This document shows positions 28,027 to 52,337 of a stretch of DNA of 64,000 nucleotides, one piece after another. Position numbers and translations under genes: made by a program. Below the pieces are notes generated by a model. That model saw nothing but the letters and a program-made list of their open reading frames with translations. It did no database searches and had not been told where the DNA came from. This stretch comes from Longimicrobiales bacterium (GTDB lineage Bacteria > Gemmatimonadota > Gemmatimonadetes > Longimicrobiales > Gaopeijiaceae). Position 1 is the first letter of the stretch. Every line of letters begins with the position of its first letter. Location: the NCBI GenBank assembly GCA_965204735.1, contig OZ242008.1:2976001-3040000 (forward strand), in the 5' to 3' direction.

Positions 28027-31000
28027 GTGCAGATGACCGTCCCCACCATATTCGAGACCTGCGTCCCGCGAAGCGACGTCATGGCCGGAGTGGCCGACGC
28101 CGAGTTCGCGGCCGACCTGGCCCAGGTGCTCTCCGCCACCGGCAGCGCCGACTACCGCGATCCCGCTCGCTTCTTCGCCAACACGTACCCCACGCGAGGG
28201 CTCAAGAGCCTGCTCGACAACGTGTGCCGACGCCTGTCGGGGGTCGGGGGCGACGTGGCCGCCATCTTCCGCCTGGACACGTCCTACGGCGGCGGCAAGA
28301 CCCACGGGCTCATTGCGCTGGCCCATGCGGCGGGCGGCCTCGAAGGCGTGGCGAACCCCGGCGAGTTCGTGGACCCCGCCGTTCTTCCCAAGGAGCCCGT
28401 CCGCGTCGCGGCCTTCGACGGCGAGAACGCCGACCCGGCCAACGGGCGCGCGTTGGGGGACGGCGTGCTGGCCCACACCCCTTGGGGCGAGATCGCGTAC
28501 GCACTGGCCGGGCACGCCGGGTACGAACGGGTGCGCAAGAGCGACAAGGGCCGCGTTGCGCCCGGGGCCGACACCTTGCGGGAACTCTTCGGCGGCCGGC
28601 CCGCCCTGGTGCTGCTGGACGAGCTCTCCGTCTACCTGCGCAAGGTGCAGGAAGCGGAAGGCGGCCAGGACCAGCTGACGGCATTCCTCACGTCGCTCTT
28701 CAAGGCCGTCGAGAGCACCCCCAACGTCGCCTTGGTGTACACGCTGGCGGTGGGCAAGGGCGGCAAGGGCACCGACGCCTACGCCGACGAGAACAGCTTC
28801 ATCGCCGACCGAATGCAGGAAGCCGAGAAGGTGTCCGCCCGCAAGGCGACCCTTCTCAACCCCACGGAGCAGGACGAGACGGTCCACGTCCTGCGCCGAC
28901 GCCTCTTCAAGTCCATCGACGAAAGCCGGGCCGCCGAAGTCGCGTCCGCCTACGCGGCCCTGTGGAAGGTCCACGCCGATTCCCTCGCCCCCGACGCCTC
29001 GCGCCCGGAGACGCGGCAAGCGCTCGTCGACGGCTACCCCTTCCACCCCGAAGTCCTGGAGACCCTCACCGACAAGACGGCCACGCTGGAGACCTTCCAG
29101 CGCGTCCGGGGAATGCTGCGGCTGCTGGCCCGGACGATCCACCACCTCTGGGAGACCCGCCCCGACGACGCCACCGCGATTCACGTCCACCACGTCGATC
29201 CGGGCCGCGAGTCCATCCGGCAAGAGATCGTCACGCGCCTGGGCCAGACCCAGTACGTGCCCGCCATCGACGCCGACGTGTCCAGCGGCAACGCCGACAA
29301 GAAGTCGCTCGCCCAGCAGATCGACGCCGACCATCACCGGGGACTGCCTCCTTACGCCGAGTACGCGGCGCGCACGATCTTCCTGCACACGCTGGCGTAC
29401 AACGAACCGCTGAAGGGAGTGTCTCCGCCCGAACTGCGCTACTCGGCGCTCGGCCCTGCGACGGACTTGAGCTTCATCGAAGACGCCCGCAAGAAGTTCG
29501 TCGCCGAGTCGGCCTACCTGGACGACCGGCCCGGCGCGCCGATGCGCTTCCTGGCGGAGGCCAACCTTACGCAGATCGTCCGCCGCGAGGAGCGCAACGT
29601 GGACGCGGAAGAGGTGCGCGCCCAGCTGAACGCCGGCATCCGCACGATCTTCGAGGGCAAGACCCTGGAGGCCGTGTGCTTCCCCGGCGGCCCCCACGAC
29701 GTGGCCGACGAAGCGGGCGAAAGCCGTCCCAAGCTGGTGGTCGTCTCGTACGACGCCGTGGCGCTCGAAGGGACCGTGGACCTTGTGCCCCACCTGATCG
29801 AACGAATCTACTCGCGCAAGGGCTCGGACGGCTCGGCGCTCCGCCTCTTCCGCAACAACGTCGTCTTCGTGGCGGCGGACGAGTCCCGTCGCGAGGAGAT
29901 GCGGGACAGGGTGCGGCGGCGGCTGGCGTTGCGGGAGCTCAAGAAGCCGGAGCGGCTGAAAGCGCTGGCGGACCACCAGCAGACCAAGGTGCAGGAGTGG
30001 GCTCGGCGCTCGGAAACGGACGAGGCCGTGTCGATACAGCAATGCTACCGCCACGTCTTCTACCCCTCGCGCAACAAGGTCGGCGAGAGCACGGTCGATC
30101 TGGCGCACACGGCCATTGACGCGCCCTCGACCTCCGAAAAGCCGGGCGCGGGGCAGCAGCAGGTCGTCCGCGTGCTCCAGGACTTGGTCAAGCTGCGGCT
30201 GGCCGACGACGAGCCCGACTCTCCGGCGTACGTGCGGGACCGGACCCCGCTTCGCAAGGGGGAGATGACGACCCGCGCGCTTCGCAGCGAGTTCCGGCGC
30301 GACCCGTCGCTGCCCATCCTGGTGGGCGACGACGTCTTCGTGCAGGGCGTGCGAAACGGGGTCGAGCAGGGCGAATACGTGTACCGGAGCGGGGAGCTGC
30401 TCTACGGCCCGGGCGACCCGTCGGCGACGATTCGGATCGACGAGCAGTCGGTAGTGCTCACGATGGCCTACGCAAAGAACAAGGGCGTGTGGCCCAGGCC
30501 GGAGCCAGAAGGAGGCGGGGATCAAGAGGCCGAGGAGGGCGCGCCGGGGACCGAGCCCCCGCCCACCGACCGGGACGGCGCTGCGGAGGGCGGCGACGGG
30601 CAGTCGGTCGTCGGCCCGTTCGAGGTCGAGGCCCCCTTCCGCGAGGCGATCGTCCGCGTGTGGGAGAAAGCGCGCGGCCGGGGGTGCCGGCGGATCGAGA
30701 AGCTGGTCGTCCGCGTGTTCGAGGCGGACGAGGCGCTCCGCGTCATGAGCGTCGTGGGCTCGTTGCCGGGCGCGGCCAAGACGGTCAAGCTGCAGGGAGG
30801 CTACGAGACCCGCGACGGAGGCTCGCTGGAGTTGGAGTTCGCCGGGTCGATCGAGGACGCCGATCCGGTGAAGGAGTTCCTCCACTCCCAGATGCGGGCG
30901 GCCGCGAGCACCAGCCTCGAGGTCCGCTACGAGCTCGCCTTCGAGGACGGCTTGACGACCGACGAGGACGGCCCGAAGATGATCATGGAGCGGCTGTCCC

Positions 31001-31053
31001 GGTTCGTGAGCGGATCGACGGCCGTGTCGGCTACCGGAACGGAGGAGGGCTGA
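28027..31053 (+). CDS. DUF499 AAA+ ATPase of a restriction-like defence system
   Basis: EFAADL, FFANTYPT, YGGGKTH Walker A, LLDE Walker B, YPFHP, FQRVRGMLR. Confidence 0.9.
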   Translation: MQMTVPTIFETCVPRSDVMAGVADAEFAADLAQVLSATGSADYRDPARFFANTYPTRGLKSLLDNVCRRLSGVGGDVAAIFRLDTSYGGGKTHGLIALAHAAGGLEGVANPGEFVDPAVLPKEPVRVAAFDGENADPANGRALGDGVLAHTPWGEIAYALAGHAGYERVRKSDKGRVAPGADTLRELFGGRPALVLLDELSVYLRKVQEAEGGQDQLTAFLTSLFKAVESTPNVALVYTLAVGKGGKGTDAYADENSFIADRMQEAEKVSARKATLLNPTEQDETVHVLRRRLFKSIDESRAAEVASAYAALWKVHADSLAPDASRPETRQALVDGYPFHPEVLETLTDKTATLETFQRVRGMLRLLARTIHHLWETRPDDATAIHVHHVDPGRESIRQEIVTRLGQTQYVPAIDADVSSGNADKKSLAQQIDADHHRGLPPYAEYAARTIFLHTLAYNEPLKGVSPPELRYSALGPATDLSFIEDARKKFVAESAYLDDRPGAPMRFLAEANLTQIVRREERNVDAEEVRAQLNAGIRTIFEGKTLEAVCFPGGPHDVADEAGESRPKLVVVSYDAVALEGTVDLVPHLIERIYSRKGSDGSALRLFRNNVVFVAADESRREEMRDRVRRRLALRELKKPERLKALADHQQTKVQEWARRSETDEAVSIQQCYRHVFYPSRNKVGESTVDLAHTAIDAPSTSEKPGAGQQQVVRVLQDLVKLRLADDEPDSPAYVRDRTPLRKGEMTTRALRSEFRRDPSLPILVGDDVFVQGVRNGVEQGEYVYRSGELLYGPGDPSATIRIDEQSVVLTMAYAKNKGVWPRPEPEGGGDQEAEEGAPGTEPPPTDRDGAAEGGDGQSVVGPFEVEAPFREAIVRVWEKARGRGCRRIEKLVVRVFEADEALRVMSVVGSLPGAAKTVKLQGGYETRDGGSLELEFAGSIEDADPVKEFLHSQMRAAASTSLEVRYELAFEDGLTTDEDGPKMIMERLSRFVSGSTAVSATGTEEG

Positions 31054-31054
31054 C

Positions 31055-31537
31055 GTGGCAAGACCAAGCCGAACTTCCCCTGCCGCCTTCCCCTTGTCCG
31101 CGCCCCAGTACGAGCTTCGGACGCGCAGCCGCGGACCGGCCCTCGCCGAGTACGAGATCTGGCAGCTTCCAGCGCCCGCCACGCCCCACGTGACCCGTCC
31201 CGTGCGAATCGCCGGGCTCCGCGGCCGCAACCTGGACCTGGTCGAGCACCGCGTCCTCCGCCGCTTGTCCCGCGGCGGCGTCAAGCTCCTCTCCCGAACG
31301 ACCCGCGAACCCCGCGCCTACCCCCTCTCCGAAGACTTGGCCCTCTCGATCGGCCTCCTCTTCCGCTGCCTGGCGCCGATGCGCCACCGCGACCGGATGA
31401 TCGCCGTCGCGGAAGGCGTGGACGCCATGGAGCGCGAAGAGGCCGGCTACTGGCTGGGCATGGCGATGCACCGTCGGAACCCCAGGCGCGTGCTGATGGC
31501 GCTGCGGTGCCTGCTGACGGAAGCGGGGCGGAAGTAG
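31055..31537 (+). CDS. Small DUF499-associated protein (DUF3780-like position)
   Basis: Starts 1 bp after the DUF499 stop; MEREEAGYW...ALRCLL motif. Confidence 0.75.
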   Translation: MARPSRTSPAAFPLSAPQYELRTRSRGPALAEYEIWQLPAPATPHVTRPVRIAGLRGRNLDLVEHRVLRRLSRGGVKLLSRTTREPRAYPLSEDLALSIGLLFRCLAPMRHRDRMIAVAEGVDAMEREEAGYWLGMAMHRRNPRRVLMALRCLLTEAGRK

Positions 31538-31735
31538 CGGCGATGCGGATTGAGCCGGACCAGAAGCAGCGCGGTGCTCGCGTTCGCCAGCTGGAATCGG
31601 AAACTTCTACCGACGTTCATTCCGCAAGGAGCGACACAGATTTTGTGGCACTGCAAGAATGGGAGGGATATGTGATCGCGGCTCTTCCCCTGTTTCGGTG
31701 GGTGCCGTAGGATGGACGGGAGGACGGCGTGACTT

Positions 31736-32989
31736 TTGGAGCGAGGAGAGCGAATGGAGATGCGGGAGTGGGTGGAGCGGCTGATGGGGCTGGGGCCGGA
31801 GTGGCGGATCGAGCGCGTGGACGAGGATTCGGAGCGCCAGGAGGCGCGGGTGACGCTGGCGCGCAGGGCTGGCTCGCCGTTGCGGTGCCCGGAGTGCGGG
31901 CGGACGTGTCCGGGCTACGACGTGCGGCGCCGGGAGTGGCGCGGGCTGGACGCATGGGGACACAAGACGTTCGTGGTCTACGACGTGCCGCGGGTGGAGT
32001 GTCCGGAGCACGGGGTGACGACGACGCGGGTGCCGTGGGCGGAGGGGCGGTCGAGGTACACGGCGGCGTTCGAGTCGCTGGTGATCGGCTGGTTGCGCGA
32101 GGCGAGCGTGCTTGCGGTGTCGCGGCGGCTGCGCTTGAGCTGGACGGCGGTCGCTGGGATCATGGAGCGTGCGGTGCGCCGGGGTTTGGCGCGTCGCGAG
32201 ATGCGGGCGCCGCGGCGGCTGAGCGTGGACGAGACGTCGTTCAAGCGGGGCCACAAGTACGTGACGGTGGTGTCGGACTCGGAGACGAAGGACGTGCTGC
32301 ACGTGGCGCCGGGCCGTAGCCGCGAAGCGCTGGAGGCGTTCTACCGCACGATGGGCGAGCGGCGGCTGGCGGCGGTCGAGAGCGTGTCGATGGACATGTG
32401 GCGGCCCTACGTGGCGGCGACGGAGGCGTGGGTTGCCGACGCGCGCAGCAAGACGGCGTTCGACCGCTTTCACGTGGCCAAGCATCTGGGCGACGCGGTG
32501 GACAAGGTGCGGCGCGCCGAGCACAAGGAGCTGAAGGCGCGGGGCAATGCCGTGCTGGCGGGCACGCGGTACCAGTGGCTCCGGGGCGCCGGCAAGAAGA
32601 CGCACGCCGAGAAGCTGGCGTTCGCCGAGTTGCGCAAGAGCGTCGAGCGCACGTCCCAGGCCTGGGCGCTCAAGGAAGCGGCGTCGAAGCTGTGGCGATA
32701 TCGCAGCCGGGGCTGGGCGCACTCGGCGTGGTTGCGCTGGCTGCAATGGGCGTCGGCCTCCGGGCTCGAGCCGGTCGAGAAGGCGGCGGCGATGGTCCGG
32801 ACGCACCTGTGGGGCATCGTCAACGCCGTCGTGCTCGATGCCACCAACGGCCCGGCCGAGGGCGTCAACAGCCGCATCCAAGCGATCAAGGCCCGGTGCC
32901 GCGGCTTCCGCAACCAGGACCGCTTCGCCGCGGCCATTCTCTTCCACCTCGGCGGTCTCGACCTCTGTCCGCGCCCCGCCCAGCACTGA
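31736..32989 (+). CDS. ISL3 transposase
   Basis: CPECG zinc finger, SVDE, SMDM, DRFHV, TNGPAEGVNSRIQ, RGFRN. Confidence 0.95.
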   Translation: MERGERMEMREWVERLMGLGPEWRIERVDEDSERQEARVTLARRAGSPLRCPECGRTCPGYDVRRREWRGLDAWGHKTFVVYDVPRVECPEHGVTTTRVPWAEGRSRYTAAFESLVIGWLREASVLAVSRRLRLSWTAVAGIMERAVRRGLARREMRAPRRLSVDETSFKRGHKYVTVVSDSETKDVLHVAPGRSREALEAFYRTMGERRLAAVESVSMDMWRPYVAATEAWVADARSKTAFDRFHVAKHLGDAVDKVRRAEHKELKARGNAVLAGTRYQWLRGAGKKTHAEKLAFAELRKSVERTSQAWALKEAASKLWRYRSRGWAHSAWLRWLQWASASGLEPVEKAAAMVRTHLWGIVNAVVLDATNGPAEGVNSRIQAIKARCRGFRNQDRFAAAILFHLGGLDLCPRPAQH

Positions 32990-33047
32990 CCCGCCGTGCC
33001 CCGTGCCACCTCCGCTCCGTCCAGGTTCCATGTCCCTCCCCACGACA

Positions 33048-34096
33048 TGTCGTACCAATTTAGAAATGTCCGGTCTTACCAAGATAGAAATGTCCTCTTT
33101 CGGGCGATGTTCGGCGGGAGTCGAACTCGTGCCCGGGAGGAGGAGCGAATGGAGTTGAGCTTGAAGGAGCGGGACCGGATCTCGGTGTTGAGGCAGGTGA
33201 GCGAAGGCGTGCTGGCGGCGACCGAACGTCACTTCCGGCGCGTGCGCCGCCGGTTCGAGGCGGCGGGCGACGAGGTGGTCGTGCACGGGCTCCGGGGTCG
33301 GAGGTCGAACCAGTCGCTGCCGTCGGAGACGCGGGGGCGGGTGCTGGCCATGGCCAGGACCCCGACTACGCCGCCTTCGGCGCCACGCTGCTGGCGGAGC
33401 GCGTCGAGCTGAAGCTCCCCCGTCGTCGTCGAACGGCGTCTCTCGGGCGAGCTGCGCTTCCGGCATCGCGGCTGCTACCTGACGCCCAAGGCCTTGGGAT
33501 CGGTCCGGTCCGCGACGCCCAAGCCGGCGTCCGCGCCCGCGACGGCCAAGCCCAGGCCCAAGCCGCCGAAGCCGGGAAGGAATCACCCGTGGAGCAAGCA
33601 CTTCAGCGCCAGCGTGGCTCAGGCCGTGGCCAAGCGGGAACACCGCGCCGCCCACTCCAACGGGACCGGTCCCGAGCAGTGCAGGGCCTCGTCCTGAGCC
33701 CGCAGGCGGGGACGGCGGGTCGCACTCCCCTTCCCGCAAAGGTCGGGCGTGACCGCGGTGTCGGCATCCGTGCCTCCGAGGCTTGCCGGCGCTGCGCAGG
33801 TCGCTCGGCGCACCACGACCGTCCGAGCTGGCAAGCTCAGTGCGAACTGCAAGCCATCGGGGCAGCAGTGTCCAGGCCCGTCCGCGTTGGCGTCCATCCG
33901 GCCAGAGCTTGGCCACGGCGACGATCTCGACTCGCCAGGCCGCCGCTGGCCTTGAAGCGCCCGGACCAGGGCGCCCGGCGCCGTACAGCCCAGGCTTGCT
34001 GGAGCCGCGCGTCCTGCGCCCAACACCTGGCCCTCGGCCTCAGGAAGAACCCATCGTTCACACCACCAGGGGGGACATTTCTACTTTGGCTTGACA
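33048..34096 (+). mobile_element. IS1202-like (ISNCY) element, internally deleted
   Basis: TGTC..CCAA..TAGAAATGTCC inverted ends, motif doubled at the left end; 17-bp flanking repeat TGTCCCTCCCCAC(G/C)ACA at 33031 and 34097. Confidence 0.85.
33149..33697 (+). pseudogene. IS1202-like transposase remnant
   Basis: MELSLKERDRISVLRQV...HGLRGRRSN N-terminus and KP..NHPW C-terminus in different frames; DDE core missing. Confidence 0.8.
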
Positions 34097-34611
34097 TGTC
34101 CCTCCCCACCACATCAGGCGAAGAGCCGTGATCGCAATCAATGATGACGACTTCGAGGCACGCCTGTTGGACCTGACGGCGAATGCGAAGCGTGAGGAGG
34201 AAGAAGCGACCATACCGTTTAGCGCGGTTTCCGAGAAAGATCGGGACGAGATGCGGCTGGGCAGCATCTTCCATTGGTCCATCGGATACAATAAGACGAC
34301 CTGGAACAGGACGCGACGGACGATATCGCAAATCGTCTTCCGCGATACGCCCGTTCTGACGCAGAGAGATATGGACGAGGCCTGGGAATGGGCACTCGAA
34401 ACTCGGCGGCTGCTCGGGCTTGACCCTCCCGATCGGCCTGCTGTTCCACTGCCAAGCCCCGATGCGACACCCGACCGTGCGACCGACTGAATTGGGTGTT
34501 CTCTATTGGAACTGATGTCCGTTCCGACACATTGACAACCCGCCGGCGGCAGACGGGAGAGTTCTGTGTGAACGGATCAAGCTCAGTCCGTAACGGAATC
34601 GACACATCATC

Positions 34612-35889
34612 ATGATCCGTCGAATCCAGGCACTGAACTACCGTTGCCTCCGGTACGTCGATCTGTCGCTGGATCGGTTCCATGTGCTGGTGGGACCCAA
34701 CGCCAGCGGCAAGAGTACGCTGTTCGACGTGATGGCGTTCATGGGCGACGTGATTCGCGAAGGCGTTGGCGCAGCCACGGAGAGGCGAACGGAGAACTTT
34801 CAAGACTTGGTTTGGAAAAGGCCGAAGCGCAACATGAGTTTCGAGCTGGCCTTCGAGATCAACGTGCCCGACGACATCAAGGAGAAGCTGCCCCCGGAGA
34901 AGGACGATCGCGTCTTTCGCTACGAGATCGCGATTCGAGAGTCCGACAACGGATGGAAAATCGATTCCGAGCGCGGGCTGTTGATGCCGGAACCCTACAG
35001 GCCGCGTTCCGTGGCTCCCTCGCAGGTGTCTCGTTTCCCCGATCCGCCTCTACCTCCAGGCACAATCCTAGCTGGGGGCGCCCGCCCCGGTCGTCGTACG
35101 ATTTTGAGCAAGTCCCCCGAGGGGACGGACAGTTTCAGTATCGAGACTTCGGACGACCCAGGCAAAAGTTGGGCTACGAGCATAGCCTTCGGCCCAAAGC
35201 ACTCGGCGCTTCGCAACCTGCCAGAGTCACCCGACAAGTTTCCCATGGCCTCCTACGTAAAGTCTTTGGTGGGTGGTGGCATTGATTTCTTGTTTCTCGA
35301 CAGCAAGAAGATGCGCCTGCCGAGCCCTCCACACTCGAATCGCGAACGGTTGTCTTCTGACGGCCATAACCTGCATCGACTTATTGATGTCATGAGGAAA
35401 ACGGACGCGGAGGTCTATCGGGAATGGCTTGAACATGTCCAGACCGTCCTGGAAGACCTCTACGATATTCGAATCGTGGACCAAGAATACAACCGTAGCG
35501 TGTACCTAACCCTTGCCTACGATACCGGCTTGGAGGTTCCGTCGTGGATGGTGTCCGACGGCACCCTGCGATTTCTTGCGATGACCCTGATTCCATACCT
35601 GTCGCAGGATGGTCAAGTGTATTTGCTGGAAGAACCCGAGAACGGGATACATCCACTGGCGCTGGACGCTGTGTACTCGTCCTTGTCATCGGCGTACGAG
35701 TCGCAGGTACTGGTAGCCACGCATTCTCCTTCCTTCTTGTCCCTGGCGTCTCCAGAGGACATTCTTTGTTTTGCGAGGAGCGACGAAGGCGCAACCGGTA
35801 TCGTCAGGGGCAACGACCATCCGATGCTCAAAGAATGGCCAGAAGGCACCGACACCCGGTTGGTATTTGCCGACGGCGTGATCGGATGA
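34612..35889 (+). CDS. AAA_21-type ATPase (resembles MADS Mad3 type)
   Basis: GPNASGKS, VSDGT, LEEPENG, ATHS; the Mad3 likeness is recalled, not searched. Confidence 0.85.
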   Translation: MIRRIQALNYRCLRYVDLSLDRFHVLVGPNASGKSTLFDVMAFMGDVIREGVGAATERRTENFQDLVWKRPKRNMSFELAFEINVPDDIKEKLPPEKDDRVFRYEIAIRESDNGWKIDSERGLLMPEPYRPRSVAPSQVSRFPDPPLPPGTILAGGARPGRRTILSKSPEGTDSFSIETSDDPGKSWATSIAFGPKHSALRNLPESPDKFPMASYVKSLVGGGIDFLFLDSKKMRLPSPPHSNRERLSSDGHNLHRLIDVMRKTDAEVYREWLEHVQTVLEDLYDIRIVDQEYNRSVYLTLAYDTGLEVPSWMVSDGTLRFLAMTLIPYLSQDGQVYLLEEPENGIHPLALDAVYSSLSSAYESQVLVATHSPSFLSLASPEDILCFARSDEGATGIVRGNDHPMLKEWPEGTDTRLVFADGVIG

Positions 35890-36129: not shown

Positions 36130-36407
36130 TGGACCAGACGCGGGGTGACCAGCAACCAGCCTTGAATCGCGGCCTGCTTTGCGCCCAGTGCGGAGCGCGA
36201 ACGGTCTTCACCGGTGGGCCCGACGACCGTCGCTCCAGCCGAAGTCCGCAACAGCAGGAGGAACACGGGATGAGCCGAGCCGACTTCGCCCGTGCCACGG
36301 GGCTGGGCGAGGCGACAATCGCGGGCTGGGAAGACGGGCTTCTGGTTCCGAACATCGCCGACGAGTGCGATCTGCGGCTCGTCTGTCTTCCGGTTGCTTC
36401 GGCATGA
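36130..36407 (+). pseudogene. MqsA-like Zn-finger/HTH antitoxin remnant
   Basis: CAQC followed by GMSRADFARATGLGEATIAGWEDG HTH; too short for an intact gene. Confidence 0.55.
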
Positions 36408-37150
36408 GCGTCACAGCCGCCATGAAGATCATACTCGCCAAGAGGAGCGGAAACAGGTGCGCACGGCCAGGTTGCCAAGTGGTGCTGGCACAGCCGTCCG
36501 AGGCGGAGTCCGCGCTGAGCATTGGGGAAGCCGCCCACATTTCGGGTGCCCGGGCGGGCTCCGCTCGCTACGACTCAAAGATGACGGAACAAGAGCGGAA
36601 CCACGTTGACAACCTGCTGTACCTGTGCAGGAACTGTCACGCGATCATCGATCGCGACGTCGAGTCCTATTCCATTGAGCGCCTCCGCCGGATCAAGACC
36701 GAACACGAAGCCAACGTCCAAGCGGCGATGGACACTAAATTTGCGACCGTGGGGTTCCCCGAGCTGCGGGAAGTGGCCGAGCACTTTTCTTCGGCATCTC
36801 CGATGCCGACCGATTCATCTCTTGATCTGCTGTCGCCTGACGCCAAGATCAAGAAGAACGATCTCGGCCCCGGCTCCCGAAACATGATCACGATGGGACT
36901 CGCCCTCTCATCTACGATTCGCCGGTTCGTCAGCGAGATGGAGTCGAGCGATCCCGACTGGCCCGCCCGCCTCAAGAACGGCTTCGGGTCCGAATACCTT
37001 CGGCTGAGAAAGGACGGACACAGGGGAGACGAACTGTTCGAGCTCATGAGCGCCTATTCCATGCTTGGCTTCCACCAGCCTTGCCACCTGTGCGCCGCAA
37101 TAGCCGTATTGGTGTACATGTTCGAAGCCTGCGAGGTGTTCGAGCGTTGA
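36404..37150 (+). CDS. HNH endonuclease effector with ABC-three-component CTD (LmuA-like)
   Basis: RSGNRCARPGC, GEAAHI, NLLYLCRNCH..ID; C-terminal YMFEACEVFE. Confidence 0.88.
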   Translation: MSVTAAMKIILAKRSGNRCARPGCQVVLAQPSEAESALSIGEAAHISGARAGSARYDSKMTEQERNHVDNLLYLCRNCHAIIDRDVESYSIERLRRIKTEHEANVQAAMDTKFATVGFPELREVAEHFSSASPMPTDSSLDLLSPDAKIKKNDLGPGSRNMITMGLALSSTIRRFVSEMESSDPDWPARLKNGFGSEYLRLRKDGHRGDELFELMSAYSMLGFHQPCHLCAAIAVLVYMFEACEVFER

Positions 37151-37371
37151 TCTTGCCGACCAAGCACGTCTCGGAGGCTAGGTCCTTGCTGGCGGCCGGT
37201 GCCCTGTTGCTCCATCGACTCGATCAGCCGCGGACCGTAACCGAGCTTTGGGAAGCTGTGAGAGGCGAGGAGATCGCCTCCTTCGACCGCTTCGTCCTAG
37301 CGGCGGAGATGCTGTACGCACTCGGCGCCGTGGATTTTCGCGACGGACTTCTGGAGAAGCACCGGCGATGA
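37147..37371 (+). CDS. ABC-three-component middle component (LmuC-like)
   Basis: ILPTKH...SLL..G...LW...FDRFVLA..LYALG; overlaps both neighbours. Confidence 0.85.
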   Translation: MILPTKHVSEARSLLAAGALLLHRLDQPRTVTELWEAVRGEEIASFDRFVLAAEMLYALGAVDFRDGLLEKHRR

Positions 37372-39110: not shown

Positions 39111-39140
39111 CTCTCCACTTCCTTACCACTCCAGGGCCCC

Positions 39141-39715: not shown

Positions 39716-39748
39716 TCGAAGCTTACTCAGCCACTTGGTGGAGGGAAT

Positions 39749-43209: not shown

Positions 43210-43280
43210 ATGCTGTCGGACCGGAAGTGGGAGCTGGCCTACACCACGGACGACGGCCCACTGGCCGAGAGCTTCTACTA
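43210..43280 (+). pseudogene. 5' stub of the PLD-SNF2 helicase gene
   Basis: MLSDRKWELAYTTDDGPLAE matches 48951 onward, then breaks off. Confidence 0.85.
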
Positions 43281-43287
43281 CATCCTC

Positions 43288-43640
43288 GGCAGGCAGAGGC
43301 TCCGACTCGCCCCGGACCGAGTTCGCCTCCGAGGCCGGCTTGACGACGGACGAGGACGGCCCGAAAATGATCATGGAGCGGCTGTCCCGGTTCGTGACCG
43401 GATCGACGGCCGTGTCGGCTACCGGAACGGAGGAGGGCTGACGTGGCAAGACCAACCCGAACTTTCCCTGCCGCCTTCCCTTTGCCGTCGTGGAAAGGCG
43501 CGGACGCCATGGAGCGCGAAGAGGCGAGCTGCTGGCTGGGCACGGCGATGCGCCGTCGGAACCCCGGGCGGGTGCTGATGGCGCTGCGGTGCCTGCTGAC
43601 GGAAGCGGGACGGAAGTAGGGCGATGCGGATCGAGCCGAG
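43288..43640 (+). repeat. Third copy of the DUF499-end/small-gene junction (internally deleted)
   Basis: ATGATCATGGAGCGGCTGTCCCGGTTCG...GGGCTGACGTGGCAAGACC...GGAAGTAG shared with 30979-31537. Confidence 0.88.
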
Positions 43641-44298
43641 GTACAGCAGCGTGATCGTACGCCTGTTCGGCCAGTTCGATCCCCAGGAACTCACACCTAC
43701 GTGGTTCGCACAACACGACCTGCTGCCACGTGACATGACGGACGCCGCCGAGGTGGTAGAGGGAAGCGGCAGCATCTTGTTCACGACCGACTGGCTCAGG
43801 TTTTGGGCAGATTCGGAGAGCATGAATGCCGAAACCCCGCAGGCACCCTACATCCAAGCGTTCGACCTCGTCAACAGGGCCTTCCGCGAGCACCTGTTTC
43901 GCACAACTCGCCTGACTGCATTTGCGATTAGCCGCAACGCTATCTTCTTCCCGTCGGATGTCGAAGTGTTTGATCGGATAGCAAGAACGCTCGTGACGTT
44001 TGACGAACATCCTGTCATTGACACCGACGGAGCGAACAGCCGTGACGGCGACGCGCCGGGTTCAGTGGTTGTAATGCAGGAAAACCAAGACGATATCGCG
44101 TTGCTGCACTTGCGTCGCACCACTGATCCGTTCATGATCGGCGTCGAATTCACCGAGAAGCACGCAAGCGAGTGCAATGATCCCGGAGAGAGCAAGGACT
44201 TGGTTCAAATGTTGGGAAGACGTTTCGACGACTTCGTCTTACGTGCCGACAAGGCAATCGAGCGAACAATGTCGTCTGGCACTCGCGAGAAGGATTAG
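43624..44298 (+). CDS. Hypothetical protein (GxFxP..TP.WF motif)
   Basis: 224-aa ORF, tightly packed; deleted paralog at ~39485-39690. Confidence 0.75.
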   Translation: MRIEPRYSSVIVRLFGQFDPQELTPTWFAQHDLLPRDMTDAAEVVEGSGSILFTTDWLRFWADSESMNAETPQAPYIQAFDLVNRAFREHLFRTTRLTAFAISRNAIFFPSDVEVFDRIARTLVTFDEHPVIDTDGANSRDGDAPGSVVVMQENQDDIALLHLRRTTDPFMIGVEFTEKHASECNDPGESKDLVQMLGRRFDDFVLRADKAIERTMSSGTREKD

Positions 44299-44303
44299 CA
44301 CGC

Positions 44304-44816
44304 ATGCCACGTCACCAGTTGTCACCCCATCAAGACATGCGCCTGGAAATGTTGCCATCTGTAGCGCTCGCATCGCCTCCACCCGGCACAGATACACTCA
44401 AGCGCTTGGCCGATGGAGTCCACATTACCGACGATGTTCACCCCACGCCGGTAACTGGCAAGTCGCCGCAGATCGCGTTGCCAATAGTAGTGATAGTGCC
44501 ACTTCAAGAATGGGAGGGCTATGTGGCGGAGATCGGTGATGCAGATTTCACGGTGGCCCTCGTGGATATCACTCGCGGCGACAAGCACGTAAGCGAAACG
44601 GCCGTAATTCCACTCAAGGAATTGTCCCAGAAGGATGCGGCCGACTTGTCGCTAGGCCAGATTTTTCGTTGGGTAATCGGATATGAGTACTCGATGTCCG
44701 GCGAGAAGACGACAGTGTCGCACATCGTGTTCCGTGATCTGCCGAGGCTGACCGACGAAGACATGGAAGAGGCTCGAAAGTGGGCCCGGGAGTATAGCGA
44801 TTGGCTCGCATCGTGA
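44304..44816 (+). CDS. LQEWEGYV-family protein, possible S1/OB fold
   Basis: Paralogous to the IS-split gene (QEWEGYV, LG.IF.W.IGY, S.IVFRD.P). Confidence 0.8.
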   Translation: MPRHQLSPHQDMRLEMLPSVALASPPPGTDTLKRLADGVHITDDVHPTPVTGKSPQIALPIVVIVPLQEWEGYVAEIGDADFTVALVDITRGDKHVSETAVIPLKELSQKDAADLSLGQIFRWVIGYEYSMSGEKTTVSHIVFRDLPRLTDEDMEEARKWAREYSDWLAS

Positions 44817-45931
44817 GGAAGCTGCATGAGCCACCGAAATCGACCGACATTGAACTCACAGTAATCGGGCCCGGCTACGGTGAGAGCATCCTGGTCCATG
44901 TTGGCGAAGGAAGATGGATTATCGTGGACTCATGTATCGATCGCGAAACGGGCAGGCCCCGAGCGCTGACTTATCTTGAAGGCATCGAAGTCGATCCATC
45001 CACCTCTGTTGCACTGGTCGTAGCAACCCACTGGCATGACGACCACATAGCCGGAATGGAACAGCTCGCGACCGTATGCCGCAAGGCGGCTTTCTGCTGC
45101 CCCGCCGCTTTGCTCGATGAGGAATGTCGAACGATCATCGCTGCACTGAAGGGACAGCCTGTGACACCTGCCAGCTCGAATGTGAGCGCGATATTTGCGA
45201 CGTTGACGGCGCTGCTTGCGAGGAATTCCCATCCCTGTTTTGCCATCGCCGATCGTCGTGTCTTTCTGCACGGGAAGTGCGAAGTATGGACTTTGTCGCC
45301 CAGCGACGGTGCATTTCTGGGCTCCATCAGGTCCCTGAAGGGCGCGTCGCCCGCCGACACGCGACGTGGAGTGCGACTGCCTGCCTTGTCGCCCAACCGG
45401 GCATCGGCAGTGTTGTGGATTGAAGTTGAAGGTGTGGCCCTCCTGCTCGGCGCCGATCTGCCGAAAGCCGGCTGGAAGGACATATTGGAAAGCCGGACTC
45501 GACCCCTAGGCCGTGCGTCCGTAGTCAAAGTGCCGCATCATGGGTCTCAAGACGCCTTTGAGCCACGAGTGTGGAACGAGATGACGACGACACAGCCGGT
45601 GGCGGTCGTGACGCCGTCCGCCAAAGGAATGAGCCCTCCGCCAACGGCAGAAGACCTCACGAGAATACTGCTCAAGACGAAAGACGCCTACATCACCGCC
45701 GAGCCTCGAAGTCAACAGACGCCAACCAAGCTGCACCACGAAGTCGACAGGGTGCTTCGACAGAAGGTGATCAAGAGGGACTCGGTCGGCAAGCCGGGGA
45801 TTGTACGACTGAGAAGGAGCATCGGTTCAGAACAGGACTGGACGGTAGAAAGATTCGGAGGCGCATGTAGCGTCGGCCGCTACGTGACCGTAACAGCAGA
45901 TGGCGACGCCAACGGAGCCGATACATCGTGA
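44813..45931 (+). CDS. ComEC/Rec2-like MBL-fold hydrolase (putative nuclease)
   Basis: GYGESILV, IVDSC, THWHDDH, LLGAD, KVPHHGS; GTGA overlap with the upstream gene. Confidence 0.85.
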   Translation: MRKLHEPPKSTDIELTVIGPGYGESILVHVGEGRWIIVDSCIDRETGRPRALTYLEGIEVDPSTSVALVVATHWHDDHIAGMEQLATVCRKAAFCCPAALLDEECRTIIAALKGQPVTPASSNVSAIFATLTALLARNSHPCFAIADRRVFLHGKCEVWTLSPSDGAFLGSIRSLKGASPADTRRGVRLPALSPNRASAVLWIEVEGVALLLGADLPKAGWKDILESRTRPLGRASVVKVPHHGSQDAFEPRVWNEMTTTQPVAVVTPSAKGMSPPPTAEDLTRILLKTKDAYITAEPRSQQTPTKLHHEVDRVLRQKVIKRDSVGKPGIVRLRRSIGSEQDWTVERFGGACSVGRYVTVTADGDANGADTS

Positions 45932-45992
45932 TCCGCCAAGTGCAGGCCCTGAGGTGCTGGAGACACGAAGGCGATCGCTGCGGCCTTGGACC

Positions 45993-48948
45993 ATGAGTGA
46001 CCGTCGGCTGATCGAGGAGTGGATGCCGATCGCGGAGATCGGGATCGAGGGTACCCGCGAGCGGACCCCGATGACGCCGTTTCCGGCGCCGAATCGGCTT
46101 CACGTGTGGTGGGCGCGTCGGCCTTTGGTGGCGTCAAGAGCTGCCGTGCTGGGGGCGTTGCTGCCAGCGGACGCGGATCGGGAACGGTTTCTGCACGTGC
46201 TTGGGATTCATGGGGACCCGGTGGCTGCCAAGGGGCGTATCGCCGTCGCGACGCGGGCTGGAAAACGGCTTGGTGCGGACGCGTACGGATACATACGTGC
46301 CTTTCGATACACGCCGTCTGTGGAAGAAGCGGATTGGTTGGCCGACTCGATTGGCAGCGACACCACGGTGCTTGATCCGACGGCAGGCGGTGGAGCCGTC
46401 CCTTTTGAAGCAATGCGGCTCGGATTTATTACGACATACGCCAACGATCTCAACCCTGTTGCTGCTCTCATCGGACGGGCGACGGTTGAATGGCCAGCGA
46501 CGTTACTAGGGCCGGAGATTCGTAAGCCATTCTTGGAACTTGGAACAAGGCTAGTCAACGAAATCCGACGGCGTCTCGTTGGCGTGTTTCCCGACGAGCC
46601 GCTCGACGATGTTCGACCGGACGGGTACGTCTGGGCCCACACTGTCCGTTGCCCGTACTGCAATGGCGTGGTGCCTTTGTCTCCGAACTGGCGTCTGACG
46701 CCGGACGGGACGGGCGTGAAGCTGCAGCCACACCTGGGAGACGGGCTGGGCTCCGACGATCGTCGCTGCGAGTTCCAGATCGTGGAGTCGGCCAACGAGC
46801 AGTCGGCGGGCACGGTGAGTCGCGGGAACGCCAACTGTCCCTATCCAGACTGCGGTCGGGTGGTCGACGGCGACGAGATCAAGCTGCAGGCGCGGGAAGG
46901 GGAGATGGGCCACCAGCTGTACGCCGTCGTGTGCAAAAAGCGCGTGCGGAAGATGCTGAAGTCGGGAAAGCGGGGCAAGGACAGGTGGGTGCGCGGCTAC
47001 CGCGCTCCGTGCCCGTCGGACGACAACGGCGATGAGATTGAGCGGCTGCTGGCGGAGAAGCTGCCGGAGTGGGAGGCGCTGGACATCGTGCCGAGCGAGA
47101 GGATACCGGACGGCAACAAGACGACAGAGCCGCTGCGGTACGGCATGCCTTACTGGCGAGACATGTTCTCCTCACGCCAGCTGCTGTGCCACGGTACCAG
47201 CATCGAGGTCTTCCGCGAGATGCTTTTGGCCGACCAGAACGTCGGAAGGCTTACCGAGCTCCGCAAGGCGGCATACGGATACTTGGCGCTAGCGATGGAC
47301 AAGGTAGTGGCCTACAACTCGCGAATGTCCTCGTGGCATGCAGGCCGGGAGGTGATCGCAAGTGTGTTTTCACAGCACGACTTTTCATTCAAGTGGTCTT
47401 ACGCCGAGATGGCACCGCTCGTCACCGGCATTGGCTACGACTGGGCGAATCGGGAGACAGCCAAGTGCATCGGCGAGCTCGCGGCACTGATTCGTCCCCA
47501 GACGGACGAAGACAACGGCCCGATCTTCAACAACGATTCCGACGAGTCCCTCCCGCCCAAGCCCGTCATCACCTGCAAGTCCGCCGACAACCTGGACCAC
47601 ATCGCCGACGGCGAGATCGACGCCGTCGTCATGGACCCGCCGTACTACGACAACGTCATGTACGCCGAGCTGTCCGACTTCTTCTACGTCTGGCTCAAGC
47701 GGACCGCCGGCTACGTCTTCCCCGAACTCTTCCGCCGCCGGCTGACCGACAAGGACAACGAGGCCGTCGCGAACCCGGCCCGCTGGAAGGGCGAGAAGGG
47801 CGCCAAGGCGCGCGCCGGCAAGGACTACCAGGAACCGCATGGCGGCGATCTTCCAGGAGTGTCGTCGCGTGCTCAAGCCCGACGGGATCATGACGCTCAT
47901 GTTCACCCACAAGGCCACCGGGGCGTGGGACGCCCTCACGGTGGGGCTGATGGAGGCGGGCTTCAGGATCACGGCGTCGTGGCCGATCAACACGGAGGCG
48001 CCGGGCAGCCTGCACATCAAGGACAAGGCGGCGGCGAACAGCACGGTCTTCCTTGTATGCCGTCCGCGAACCGGCGAAGAGAAGGAATCGGACACCATCT
48101 ACTGGGAGGACGTGGAGCCCGAAGTGGCGCGTGCCGTCCGCAAGCGCATCCCCCAGTTCAAGGAGGCGAACATCCGGGGCGTGGACCTGTACTTGGCGTC
48201 GTTTGGACCGGCGCTGGAGGAGTTCTCGCGCCACTGGCCGCTCCGGCGCGGAACGCCCCGACAGCGGACGCGGGCCCAGAAGCGTCGCCGCCAGCAGGAG
48301 CTCTTCGACGAGAAGGAGGACCTCTACGCCGCGACGCCGGAGGACGCGCTGGAGGTCGCGCGCCGCGAGGTGAAGCGGTGGCGGCTGGAGCAGCTGACCC
48401 GCGTCAGGGCGGGCGACGACATGGACGCTCGGACGGCGTTCTTCGTGCTGGCGTGGGACGCCTTCCGGGCGCCGCGCTTTCCCTACGACGAGGCGTTGAA
48501 GCTGGCGCGCGCGGTGGGCGTGGACCTGGACAAGGAGGTCGTTGGTCGGACGGCGGCGAAGGTCGGGGCGAACTTGGTGCTGTGGGACAGCGCCGAGCGT
48601 GCGGCGAAGGGCAGCCTGGGGCCGGCGGACGGCTCGACGGGCATGATCGACGTGCTGTACCGGGCGGCCCATCTGGGGCGCCTCCGTTCGCTGGACGCGG
48701 CTCGGGAGTACTTGGAGAACGTCGGGTTGCACAAGGAGCCGCGCTTCCTGGCGGCGTTGAAGGCGCTGCTGGAGGTGCTGCCGATGCCGAAATCGGTCAC
48801 CAAGTTCGACTTGCCGAAGGGGCTGGCGGCGGCGGGGAGCGACTTCGAGGTGCTGGAGAACCTTCGGCGGCTGGCGTTCGGCGAGCAGGTGGCCGAGCCG
48901 GCGCAGCTCAAGCTGTGGCGCGACGAAGAAGGGGACGACGCGACCTGA
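45993..48948 (+). pseudogene. DUF1156 adenine methyltransferase, allele 2, +1 frameshift at ~47835
   Basis: Same motifs as allele 1; CAGGAACCGCATG versus CAGGAGCGCATG in allele 1. Confidence 0.88.
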
Positions 48949-48950
48949 CG

Positions 48951-51900
48951 ATGCTGTCGGACCGGAAGTGGGAGCTGGCCTACACCACGGACGACGGCCC
49001 ACTGGCCGAGTGCTTCTACGTGCCCGCCCTCCGGCACGCCGTTCGCTACGACCGGCTGACCGGATACTTCAACGCTGGCGCGCTGACCCTGGCGGCGCGG
49101 GGCATCGAAGGGCTGGTGCGCAACAATGGCGTCATGCGCATGATCGTCGGGTGCACGCTGGAACAGGAGGAGATCGGGGCGATCCAAAGGGGCGACCAGC
49201 TGCGCAACGCTGTCGAGCAGCGTCTGGCCAGCATCCCCCTTGCGCCCGACCCAAACGAGACCGACGCCCTGGAGCTGCTGGCGTGGATGGTCGCGCGCAA
49301 GCACCTGGAGGTGAAAGTCGCAGTGCCGTGCGACGCCGGCGCCCGCCGTCCCATACCAAACGGCGCCATCTTCCACGAGAAGACCGGCGTGGTCGAGGAC
49401 CGGGCGGGGGACCGAGTCGCCTGGACCGGCAGTCTGAACGAGACCCCCAGCGGCTGGCAGTACAACTGGGAGCGCATCCAAGTCTACACCAGCTGGCGCG
49501 ACGGGGAACGCGTTGCAGGCCTCGAGGCCGACTTCGACAAGCTGTGGAACGACCAAGCCCGACGGGCGACCGTGCTGACCTTGCCCGAAGCGGTTCGCCG
49601 GGACCTGCTGCGCTTCCTTCCCAAGGACGACAAGCCGCCCGCCCGCCTTCAAGAGCGCGAGGAGACGACCCGCCCCGGGCTGGGATCGGATTCCGGCTTG
49701 CCGCCCGGCCTGGAGGGCACGATCAGAGAGCCATCCCCGCCGACCTACGGCGACGCCGACGCCGACAAGCGCGTCTTCCGCGACCGCGTGTGGTCGTTCA
49801 TCAAGCAGGCGCCGGCGATGGCGGGAGGCGGAGGGCGCGTGGGCGAAGCGACGGCGGCGGTCGAGCCGTGGCCACATCAGGCCCGGGCCTTCCGCCGCAT
49901 GTACGACGGCTGGCCGCCCAGGCTCCTCGTCGCGGACGAGGTGGGGCTGGGCAAGACGATTCAGGCGGGGATGCTGCTGCGGCAGGCTTGGCTGTCGGGG
50001 CGCGCCAAGCGGATCCTCGTGCTGGCGCCGAAGGCCGTGCTGCGCCAGTGGCAGGTCGAGCTCTACGAGAAGTTCAACCTCAACTGGCCCATCTACGACA
50101 AGGGCGAGATGACTTGGCACCCGTCGCCCGCCTTGCGGGGCCGCCACGTCCGGCCCGCGGCCAGCGACCGTTGGCACCAGGAGCCCGTGGTGATCGCGTC
50201 CAGCTACCTGATGCGCCGAAGCGACCGTCGGCAAGCGCTTCTGGAGGACGCCGAGCCGTGGGACTTGATCGTCCTCGACGAGGCCCATCACGCCCGACGC
50301 CGGGGCGCGGCGGGCGCGTCCGACGGCGCTCCCAACACCCTTCTGCGGCTCATGGAGGGGCTGAAGGACCGCACGAAGGGCCTCGTCCTGCTGACGGCCA
50401 CGCCGATGCAGGTCCGTCCCGGCGAGCTCTGGGACCTTCTGCAACTGCTGGGGCTGCCGCCCGAGTGGACACCGGCCGAGTTCGTCGAGTTCTTCGAGCA
50501 CGCCCAGCGGGCGGACCCCACGCCCGCCGCCTTCGAGAGGATGGCGCGGCTCTTCCAAGCGACGGAGCGGCGCTACGGGGCCATGGCGCCAGCCCAGCTT
50601 GCCCGGGCGCTCGAGGGGCTCTCCCGCCTTCAGGCCCGGAAGGTGGTGCGCGCACTGCGGGACCGGGCCGAGACGCCTCGTCGCCAGCTGTCGGGAGCGC
50701 AGCGCGAAGCGGCCCTCCGGCTGATGCGGGTGAACACGCCCGTGCGGCGCCTCGTGTCCCGGCACACGCGGGAGCTTCTTCGCGAGTACCACCGGCGCGG
50801 CCTGCTGGCGACGCGCATCGCCGACCGCGATGTGGACGACCGCTTCGTCCAGATGAGCGCCGACGAGCGCGAACTGTACGAGGCGGTGGAGGAGTACATC
50901 GCCACGACGTACAACCAAGCGTCGGAAGAGGAGCGGCGGGCCGTCGGATTCGTCATGACGATCTACCGGCGGCGGCTGGCCAGCAGCTTCCGGGCGTTGC
51001 GCCGCACGTTGGAGCGGCGCGTCGGGGGCGAGGGCGGGCCGAGCGGGGACACAGCGGGCGGAACCGGCGGCACTGCAGGCGGCGTGGACGCCGATCCCTC
51101 GCTCGCCGAAGCCACCCTGGCCGAGGACGTGTCCGACGACGAGGTGGCCGACGACCCCGCCTTGGACGAGGACGCGGTGGCCAAGGCGCTGCGGGAATCC
51201 CTTCGCGCCGAAGAAGCGGAGGACGTGCGACGGCTCCTCGACCAGATCGCCCGGCTTCCGCCCGACAGCAAGCTTGCGGCCCTGAAGGACGCACTGGACG
51301 ACCTGCGCGAGCGCGGACACCGCCAAGTCATGGTCTTCACGCAGTACACCGACACCATGGACTTCCTGCGGGAAGAGCTGGCCGGGGACGCGGGAGCCCT
51401 GGAGGCCGGAACTGCGCGGGACGCCGGCTCCGCCCCAGCAAGCGCCGGCTCCGCCCCCACAAGCGCTGGCTCCGCCCCAACAAGTGCCGGCTCCGCCCCC
51501 AAGCTCATGTGCTACTCGGGCCGGGGCGGCGAAGTGCCCGGCACGGACGGCTGGCGGCCCGTGGACCGCGACACCGTCAAGCGACGCTTTCGAGACGGCC
51601 AGGCCGACGTGCTGCTGTGCACCGAGGCGGCGGCAGAAGGGCTCAACTTCCAGTTCTGCGGCGCCCTGGTGAACTACGACATGCCATGGAACCCGATGCG
51701 GGTCGAGCAGCGCATCGGCCGGATCGACCGCGTGGGCCAGCAGCACCCGACGATACGCATCGTGAACCTTCACTACGCGGACACCGTCGAGACCGACATC
51801 TACCGGGTGCTGCGGGAGCGCATCGGGCTCTTCGCCAAGATGGTGGGCCGGCTGCAGCCGATCTTGGCGCGGTTGCCGGGGACGATCACGCGGGCCGTGC

Positions 51901-52337
51901 TCTCGGGCGAAGGCGGGAGCGCGGCGGGCCGCCGGGAGACCGCCAAGGCCGTGGAGGCGCAGGCCAGCGAAGCCGAAGGCGGGTTCGACATCGACGCGGC
52001 GCTGGACGAGGTGTTGGACGACGACGCCCGCCCCGAGCCCCTCGTCACCATGACCGACCTGGACCGGGTGATCGGCTCGCCCGACCTGCTCGCGCCCGAC
52101 ACGCGGGTCCAGCCCCTGGGCAACCGCGAGTACGGCTTCACCCCGCCCGGGTCCACCGAGCCGGTGCGCGTCACCACCGACCCCGACCATCACCGCGACC
52201 ACCCCGACAGCGTGGAGCTGTGGTCGCCCGGCAACCGCCTCTTTCGGGCGCCGGAGGGCGTGAACGACCAGCGCCGCGACTGGCCCCCGGACGCCGCTCT
52301 GAAGGACATCCTGGACGGCCGACCCGGGTCGTCGTGA
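48951..52337 (+). CDS. PLD-nuclease-like + SNF2 helicase
   Basis: FHEK...D...GSLNET; ADEVGLGKT, DEAHH, LTATP, EGLN, QRIGRIDR. Confidence 0.92.
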   Translation: MLSDRKWELAYTTDDGPLAECFYVPALRHAVRYDRLTGYFNAGALTLAARGIEGLVRNNGVMRMIVGCTLEQEEIGAIQRGDQLRNAVEQRLASIPLAPDPNETDALELLAWMVARKHLEVKVAVPCDAGARRPIPNGAIFHEKTGVVEDRAGDRVAWTGSLNETPSGWQYNWERIQVYTSWRDGERVAGLEADFDKLWNDQARRATVLTLPEAVRRDLLRFLPKDDKPPARLQEREETTRPGLGSDSGLPPGLEGTIREPSPPTYGDADADKRVFRDRVWSFIKQAPAMAGGGGRVGEATAAVEPWPHQARAFRRMYDGWPPRLLVADEVGLGKTIQAGMLLRQAWLSGRAKRILVLAPKAVLRQWQVELYEKFNLNWPIYDKGEMTWHPSPALRGRHVRPAASDRWHQEPVVIASSYLMRRSDRRQALLEDAEPWDLIVLDEAHHARRRGAAGASDGAPNTLLRLMEGLKDRTKGLVLLTATPMQVRPGELWDLLQLLGLPPEWTPAEFVEFFEHAQRADPTPAAFERMARLFQATERRYGAMAPAQLARALEGLSRLQARKVVRALRDRAETPRRQLSGAQREAALRLMRVNTPVRRLVSRHTRELLREYHRRGLLATRIADRDVDDRFVQMSADERELYEAVEEYIATTYNQASEEERRAVGFVMTIYRRRLASSFRALRRTLERRVGGEGGPSGDTAGGTGGTAGGVDADPSLAEATLAEDVSDDEVADDPALDEDAVAKALRESLRAEEAEDVRRLLDQIARLPPDSKLAALKDALDDLRERGHRQVMVFTQYTDTMDFLREELAGDAGALEAGTARDAGSAPASAGSAPTSAGSAPTSAGSAPKLMCYSGRGGEVPGTDGWRPVDRDTVKRRFRDGQADVLLCTEAAAEGLNFQFCGALVNYDMPWNPMRVEQRIGRIDRVGQQHPTIRIVNLHYADTVETDIYRVLRERIGLFAKMVGRLQPILARLPGTITRAVLSGEGGSAAGRRETAKAVEAQASEAEGGFDIDAALDEVLDDDARPEPLVTMTDLDRVIGSPDLLAPDTRVQPLGNREYGFTPPGSTEPVRVTTDPDHHRDHPDSVELWSPGNRLFRAPEGVNDQRRDWPPDAALKDILDGRPGSS
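51423..51500 (+). repeat. 21-bp tandem repeat x~4 (AGSAPxS) within the helicase
   Basis: GCCGGCTCCGCCCCnnCAAGC units. Confidence 0.9.

Follow-up and report, generated by a model that had tools for sequence, protein, structure and literature searches.

Stacked cassettes and core-gene scars in a MANTIS-like operon of a Longimicrobiales bacterium: a probable case of one-sided recombination

The closest described relatives of the locus reported here are restriction-like defence operons centred on a DUF499 ATPase. One such system, formerly Gao_RL (Gao_29), has been renamed MANTIS, and the accessible text of that preprint states that MtsC is required for both methylation and restriction (bioRxiv 10.64898/2026.09.23.753747); the accessible part of a second source classes MANTIS as a DUF499-centred, BREX-related Type-2 BR system (PMC12839542). 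We analysed a locus of this kind on the plus strand (28027..52337) of a 64,000-nucleotide stretch of DNA, hereafter the window, from a Longimicrobiales bacterium (OZ242008.1, positions 2,976,001-3,040,000) whose 4.14-Mb genome is metagenome-assembled. Profile searches of the window proteins (Pfam, PADLOC, NCBIfam) gave the order DUF499 ATPase, DUF7680 small protein, DUF1156 methylase and PLD-SNF2 helicase, to which the names mtsA to mtsD were assigned by operon position only, the small gene not matching DUF3780. The slot—the interval between the small gene (mtsB) and the methylase (mtsC)—holds three cassette units and a fourth vestige, and the core-gene pieces that border them are probably scars of one-sided recombination.

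The likeness to MANTIS comprises the same four-gene order with the ATPase first, an N6-methylase that carries the motifs GGG and DPPY and varies in its central target-recognition region, and a PLD-SNF2 helicase (domains PLDc_2, SNF2 and Helicase_C; best PADLOC match PLD_Helicase). A restriction-like (Gao_RL/MANTIS-type) architecture, proposed in a preliminary description of this DNA, is borne out by the profiles and PADLOC, with DUF7680 as the small gene. We call the system MANTIS-like because the protein that defines MANTIS is unmatched: the small gene has no DUF3780 match in Pfam or PADLOC, PF12635 finds nothing at the locus, and DUF7680 takes the place of the stand-alone DUF3780 protein (MtsB), to which the small gene is alike in position and size class. 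In further differences from MANTIS, Hma profiles outscore the Gao_29 profiles in PADLOC for both ATPase and methylase, two methylase alleles are present and both are frameshifted, and ~14.5 kb separates the small gene from the last methylase. Against NF042962 the ATPase scores 211 bits, far under the cut-off of 1200, and therefore represents a distant subfamily. Hma (Type-1 BR) in turn has three genes and a helicase with a C-terminal restriction endonuclease and no PLD, whereas the present operon has an N-terminal PLD and a fourth small gene.

Embedded cargo has already been published: the accessible texts describe defence-type cassettes inside Hma, BREX, DISARM and restriction-modification operons (Payne et al. 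2024, 10.1101/2024.01.29.577857; as auxiliary effectors in PMC12839542), and the cargo here is likewise of this type, including a PDC-M68 pair and an ATPase matching HEC-01A/MAD3. In the accessible text of Payne et al. (10.1101/2024.01.29.577857), the Hma set is limited to loci in which every core gene occurs once, pseudogenes are lacking and no gap holds more than three embedded genes, and 'recombination' is never mentioned; stacked, scar-marked arrays fall outside its scope, because repeated or broken core genes were excluded. Integrase-free growth by homology-facilitated illegitimate recombination, with leftovers of displaced genes, has been proposed for effector-immunity orphan arrays of type VI secretion (T6SS) and for Rhs and contact-dependent inhibition arrays (Kirchberger et al. 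2017, PMC5361080, accessible text). As described there, T6SS and Rhs arrays keep immunity genes behind one toxin, whereas here whole multi-gene defence cassettes lie within a restriction-like operon, both flanks have contributed scars and a further methylase allele has travelled with them. The parts and the kind of mechanism are known; the setting is new. Our literature search, with subscription papers and preprint supplements outside its reach, found no report of scar-marked stacking in MANTIS- or BREX-related operons.

The repeated junction and the two methylase alleles

Self-BLAST and alignment confirmed the three repeat junctions claimed earlier (30.9-31.56, 39.2-39.5 and 43.3-43.64 kb). 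In each of these arms (A1, A2 and A3) the DUF499 gene contributes its final ~120-135 bp, small-gene pieces follow, and then comes an ATG that opens MRIEP; the copies are 92-96% identical (96% over 225 bp, E 4e-100; 94.6% over 167 bp, E 1e-69), and no further copy occurs elsewhere in the 4.14-Mb genome. The view that conserved arms stand intact at every junction holds for A1, the only whole copy, and fails for A2 (two deletions, three small-gene pieces left) and A3 (one deletion, two pieces left). These deletions are private to each arm, with 1-4 bp homologies at their junctions and no common site. Substitutions in the arm pieces look close to neutral, with ratios of nonsynonymous to synonymous change (pN/pS) of 0.2-0.8 that rest on 2-10 changes per piece; the corresponding value for the dead K1 gene is 0.88.

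The three units differ in content. Unit 1 comprises a WEG gene split by an ISL3 element, a MAD3-like ATPase and an HNH-MC6-DUF2326 cassette, with the fourth vestige in between; unit 2 a dead K1 gene, a gene of 162 amino acids, methylase allele 2 and a 70-bp mtsD stub; and unit 3 K1, WEG, an MBL-fold hydrolase, a MAD3 start stub, methylase allele 3 and mtsD. The fourth vestige includes 32 bp identical to the WEG gene of a relative, G002, with which its element order is collinear. A 37-bp block, X, precedes both A2 and A3, which suggests that arms 2 and 3 descend from one earlier junction; the two arms also share four sites and one indel against A1, and both run into the same gene, K1 (91% over 233 bp). 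Different cargo after each arm, as first described, thus fits A1, which leads into a WEG gene, and not A2 and A3. Block X is absent from the rest of the genome, from nine relative loci and from 160 related loci, and a search of 400 other genomes of the order returned chance-level matches only.

The second methylase copy aligns over 2.4 kb at 90% identity (40888-43278 against 46632-49019). Over the 5' ~700 bp the copies are 50-76% alike; in this part allele 2 is 74-87% identical to the methylase of another relative, G061, and allele 3 is 79-88% identical to that of G002. The target-recognition regions of the two alleles also differ. In the 3' halves the changes are mostly silent (38.5 synonymous, 13.5 nonsynonymous, pN/pS 0.11), suggesting that both methylases were working genes during their divergence and that these halves diverged under purifying selection. 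Both alleles now contain an extra base, which in allele 3 falls after DPPY and before the later motifs. Given that both mtsC copies are frameshifted and that MANTIS needs MtsC, the restriction core is predicted to be inactive at present, with the frames of mtsA, the small gene and mtsD open; the present locus would accordingly no longer hemimethylate a 6-bp site or restrict phage. A 2145-amino-acid open reading frame (ORF; 45900-52337) resembling a methylase-nuclease-helicase fusion was ruled out as a true fusion—it is a product of the allele-3 frameshift, and annotators should be warned of it.

Part of 36600-46500 is present in 14 runs from six studies (run labels such as 'sponge metagenome' being no evidence of habitat), and contigs of four runs were examined. 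Difference-free contigs cover 34501-37152, 37123-38803 and 39576-41260 in X9, possibly the source run, and 40172-41335 and 43425-46097 in X12, which belongs to a different study. These contigs read through the allele-2 frameshift, the deletion in K1 and the deletion in A3, which are accordingly real. For the allele-3 lesion, support comes from a single run, X9, in which no contig lacks the base at a depth of 189; contigs without it occur in X11 and X12, in X12 at least as divergent sequence.

Slots and scars in related operons

The closest related loci belong to Longimicrobiales. With the small protein as query, a full-length match was present in 3 of 60 relatives, in one copy each, and with the arm DNA as query strong matches were found in 10 of 200 family genomes, none of which has a repeated arm. 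G002 has a single slot with the order A-B-K1-WEG-MBL-C-D and a methylase start of the allele-3 type, and G061 (L097) carries WEG-MAD3-mad4-like-PDC-M28-HNH-DUF2326, followed directly by a methylase of the allele-2 type; since each of them holds one, the window strings together alleles that stand singly elsewhere. Decayed pieces occupy the slot of G003 and an ATPase-HNH pair that of G008, so the cargo between the small gene and DUF1156 does vary among relatives, as had been anticipated, and is not invariant.

A wider survey covered the best 80 of 357 genome loci found with the small protein as query, plus 80 metagenome loci; these come from several phyla and are non-independent samples, with several genomes giving more than one locus. 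Closed slots were present at 50 of the 80 genome loci (44 of them longer than 500 bp) and at 57 of the 80 metagenome loci (13 of them longer than 500 bp). As scars we counted short fragments, on the same strand, of mtsB or of the mtsC start (its first ~60 codons) in 68 co-linear genome slots longer than 300 bp. Left out of the count were seven loci whose mtsC/mtsD lie upstream in divergent orientation, loci with a split or truncated main gene (L106, L117, L131 and L146), an mtsC-internal repeat family (L050, L051, L057, L075 and L079) and weak matches in L125 (minus strand) and L127 (mtsD). Twelve slots contained scars (L104, L109, L113, L121, L127, L130, L143, L147, L148, L151, L165 and L176), against 0 of 75 in a reversed-sequence control. 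Their polarity is fixed: eight of nine mtsB scars stand 11-137 bp before an ORF start, and all four tested mtsC-start scars lie 6-40 bp after an ORF stop. Moreover, 10 of 14 scars are nearer to the gene of another locus than to their own.

The MRIEP sequence, taken initially as part of the junction, was rejected as a designed junction motif; it is the conserved N-terminus of the K1 cargo family, and an exact-codon pattern found it closely after mtsB in only 3 of the 80 genome loci.

Other arrangements were noted in the same survey. A more complex stack occurs in L176 (3970-19917), with a small-gene scar, K1-WEG-MBL, a full small gene, an ATPase-HNH pair, several methylase-start scars and helicase-start scars. 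An element of ~90 bp is present in three copies inside the methylase gene and one in the slot of L050 (12728-17367), and also in L051, L057, L075 and L079. In a second arrangement, methylase and helicase are divergent from ATPase and small gene (L128, L135, L149, L152, L156, L161, L163 and six metagenome loci).

Routes to a stacked slot

Any account of the locus must cover the arms with the deletions private to each, the divergence of the two methylase alleles, the single slots of relatives, polar scars elsewhere and the lack of a nearby integrase. Two-sided homologous recombination explains the swapping of cargo and not its addition, and we therefore invoke a one-sided route. The incoming DNA would be another allele of the same operon, paired by RecA at one conserved core gene that serves as anchor, and its other end would be joined through short chance homology, i.e., by homology-facilitated illegitimate recombination. 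The slot would thereby gain a new cassette, still attached to part of the gene that used to adjoin it, without losing the resident one, and redundant core pieces would then shrink through small deletions. Such a route predicts a piece of the former upstream neighbour before a cassette, or of the downstream neighbour after it, which matches the observation; leftover foreign neighbour-gene pieces in native juxtaposition to cassettes, the mark of illegitimate-recombination arrays, are indeed found here. The genome has intact-frame recA and comEC matches. Because the arms resemble one another more than they resemble G002 or G061, and A2 has sites and an indel in common with A3, the arm source would be a close strain or the chromosome itself. 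We infer the recombination route, the order of events and the donors, which for arms 2 and 3 would be close strains.

No integrase was found among the flanking ORFs scanned and no tRNA site at the locus, and two tyrosine recombinases (PF00589) lie more than 0.5 Mb from the locus, serine recombinases not having been searched genome-wide. Integron arrays hold serial cassettes at one chromosomal site; the present locus differs from them in lacking an adjacent recombinase among those flanking ORFs, and in borders that are eroded, unequal in length and without a uniform attachment site. The earlier proposal that cassettes from different alleles were stacked without an integrase agrees with the two methylase alleles and with the absence of an integrase near the locus.

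Several results weigh against one-sided integration. Scars were also present in 4 of 64 upstream regions (three of these loci have in-slot scars too) and in 0 of 32 metagenome slots, which lie on short contigs and are mostly empty; 4 of the 14 scars match their own locus best; and homology-facilitated illegitimate recombination is described as rare in the accessible text of PMC5361080. Between them, the methylase 3' halves show 92-99% identity and exact runs of more than 100 bp, the three arms have 11-13 mutual differences in ~220 bp (against 15-22 from G002 or G061), and block X and K1 are common to units 2 and 3, as in a tandem duplication. The similarity of the arms and of the methylase 3' halves would look no different after local duplication or gene conversion. 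Finally, no single contig among those listed from the four runs spans the whole locus. If the stretch between the mtsA end and the mtsD start had been duplicated in tandem within the chromosome, and one copy had then undergone ordinary two-sided replacement by another allele while redundant parts eroded, no one-sided foreign integration would be needed. Such a history would account for the block X, arm, K1 and mtsC common to units 2 and 3, for arms nearest to each other and for a silent divergence of ~0.1 in both K1 and the methylase 3' halves. We nevertheless consider it unlikely, as the 5' part of allele 2 matches G061, where cargo 1 sits directly upstream: allele 2 and cargo 1 adjoin there, and the unit 2 arm and cargo therefore look inserted between linked partners. 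The G002-type fourth vestige also argues against duplication, as do scars in other genomes, most of which are nearest to foreign genes.

The preliminary description took the conserved arms as recombination landing pads, and in a fuller version of this idea selection keeps the arms and RecA adds, drops and reorders cassettes and switches methylase alleles in the population. Exact runs of 45-57 bp (the longest 55-57 bp) persist between arms, and different lineages have their scars at the same two gene ends. Depth on cargo 3 is about twice that on cargo 1 and 2 in X9 and X11, in sums that may include other organisms, and a joint in X13 connects 39138 to 47621; together these give a weak hint of shorter variants, or of other organisms. 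This explanation nevertheless seems quite improbable to us, given that the arms have shed sequence through differing deletions and gained nonsynonymous changes, that scars elsewhere vary in length and are 68-98% identical to the genes of their own locus, that mtsB would be lost in a crossover between the mtsA portions of the arms, and that the ten family relatives are single-copy. Most improbable of all is a chimeric assembly of co-occurring strains, even though the genome is metagenome-assembled, depth is uneven across units, related strains occur in the same runs and the joins 38803-39576 and 42235-43425 are unbridged among the contigs listed. Assembly joins do not make eroded arms with private deletions; the difference-free contigs cross the K1 deletion and allele-2 frameshift (X9 39576-41260; the frameshift also in X12 40172-41335) and, in X12 (43425-46097), the A3 deletion into cargo 3. 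In addition, X12 covers both unit 2 and unit 3 at a depth of 2-3, and similar scars stand in 12 other loci. One-sided recombination between operon alleles is thus the origin that we favour.

Cargo, surroundings and implications

The features of the locus are listed in the table below. The second methylase gene, the helicase stub, block X, the ISL3 element, the fourth vestige and both methylase single-base insertions went unmentioned in the earlier account.

Table. Features of the MANTIS-like locus (positions in the window)
Feature	Position	Strand	Evidence or remarks
mtsA-like DUF499 AAA+ ATPase, intact, ORF of 1008 amino acids, Walker A GGGKTH	28027..31053	+	PF04465 E 3e-39; PADLOC HmaC 328 bits, DUF499 141 bits; translation
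Arm A1, intact reference junction (mtsA 3' end, mtsB, cargo start)	30916..31557	+	Self-BLAST, alignment
Small gene in mtsB position, DUF7680, intact, 160 amino acids	31055..31537	+	PF24728 E 1.5e-41
Cargo 1a, WEG family gene (QEWEG motif), starts MRIEP, ISL3-split	31543..34490	+	3' part 75% amino acid identity to G061 allele
ISL3 element, 8-bp target duplication GTGATCGC (31672-31679, 34128-34135)	31680..34127	+	Transposase 31736-32989; two more genome copies
Second insertion sequence, internally deleted, nested in ISL3 right end; flanked by 17-bp near-perfect direct repeat	33048..34096	+	About a dozen longer copies elsewhere
Vestigial fourth unit	34419..34555	+	mtsB piece 34419-34477; G002-type WEG piece 34499-34530; MBL-gene start 13 bp
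Cargo 1b, MAD3-like ABC ATPase, intact	34612..35889	+	NF047739 419.8 bits, cut-off 420
Cargo 1c, ABC three-component cassette: HNH-CTD10 nuclease, MC6, DUF2326	36404..39110	+	PADLOC PDC-M68A/B; 79% nucleotide identity to G061
Block X (37 bp), left edge of unit 2	39137..39173	+	Self-BLAST; second copy 43284-43320
Arm A2, mtsA 3' end and mtsB with two deletions	39191..39499	+	Alignment
Dead K1 copy (indels, ~470-bp deletion), then WEG gene start	39485..39717	+	Self-BLAST, translation
Cargo 2, hypothetical gene, 162 amino acids	39749..40237	+	Homologues in G003 and L099 operons
mtsC-like DUF1156 methylase allele 2, 5' part G061-type, extra base near 41172 (codon ~313)	40234..43207	+	PF06634, alignments; lesion in contigs of two studies
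mtsD-start stub (70 bp) after methylase allele 2	43210..43279	+	Sequence comparison
Arm A3, mtsA 3' end and mtsB with one ~306-bp deletion	43318..43638 (block X + A3, 43284..43638)	+	Alignment; X12 contig 43425-46097 with zero differences
Cargo 3, K1 (224 amino acids, starts MRIEP), WEG (170 amino acids), MBL-fold hydrolase	43624..45931	+	Pfam, relatives comparison
MAD3 gene-start stub (36 bp), just before methylase allele 3	45917..45952	+	86% to G061 MAD3 start
mtsC-like methylase allele 3, 5' part G002-type, different target-recognition loop, extra base near 47835 (codon ~614)	45993..48948	+	Alignments
mtsD-like PLD nuclease-SNF2 helicase, open frame; HEK, GLGKT and DEAH motifs	48951..52337	+	Pfam, PADLOC, translation

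For the cargo as a whole we infer a role in defence. The partner gene of cargo 1b (mad4-like in G061) is cut down to a start stub. Trios of K1, WEG and MBL-fold hydrolase occur in 14 of the 80 related genome loci (L098, L104, L110, L115, L117, L120, L121, L127, L130, L136, L146, L154, L162 and L176) and in 0 of the 80 metagenome loci. The K1 and WEG families gave no useful match in Pfam, PADLOC, NCBIfam or PDB sequences, the Atlas returning hypothetical clusters only, and none of the 120 K1 homologues listed out of 598 has a Pfam domain. The trio is a candidate for an undescribed anti-phage system. The insertion sequence nested in ISL3 is presumably IS1202-like; two other genome copies match ISL3 with the nested element over the full length at 97%, which suggests that the nested form has been mobilised as one unit.

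Elsewhere in the window, a minus-strand gene region (1774-9717) has about five repeats of ~303 nucleotides and about 16 of ~380 nucleotides, and probably encodes a large repetitive surface protein. Upstream of the locus, 17000-20795 comprises a low-GC stretch and a minus-strand Schlafen/AlbA_2-HATPase_c_4 gene (19017-20795); in G003 the equivalent position is occupied by a WEG homologue. Further downstream lie a minus-strand ORF with LRR, Ig-like and metallopeptidase domains (58306-61596), containing an 84-bp tandem duplication (60137-60292), and, near the window end, a further AAA_21-type ATPase on the minus strand (62429-63484).

How embedded defence cassettes enter an operon and accumulate there in the absence of an integrase is left unaddressed in the accessible text of the papers found. 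Since the scars keep a fixed polarity, the proposed route can be tested by comparing sequences and nothing else, and such loci are lost when standard pipelines filter out pseudogenes and duplicated core genes. It is conceivable, if on balance rather doubtful, that the slot of these MANTIS-like operons serves the bacterial phyla of one habitat as a common cassette array without an integrase—an array in which core-gene ends would act as universal handles, cassettes would circulate, stack in tandem and bring new methylase specificities along, RecA would expand and collapse the series within a population via leftover arms, scars would record the order and donor of each defence acquisition, and K1-WEG-MBL would be an undescribed defence system travelling the same route.

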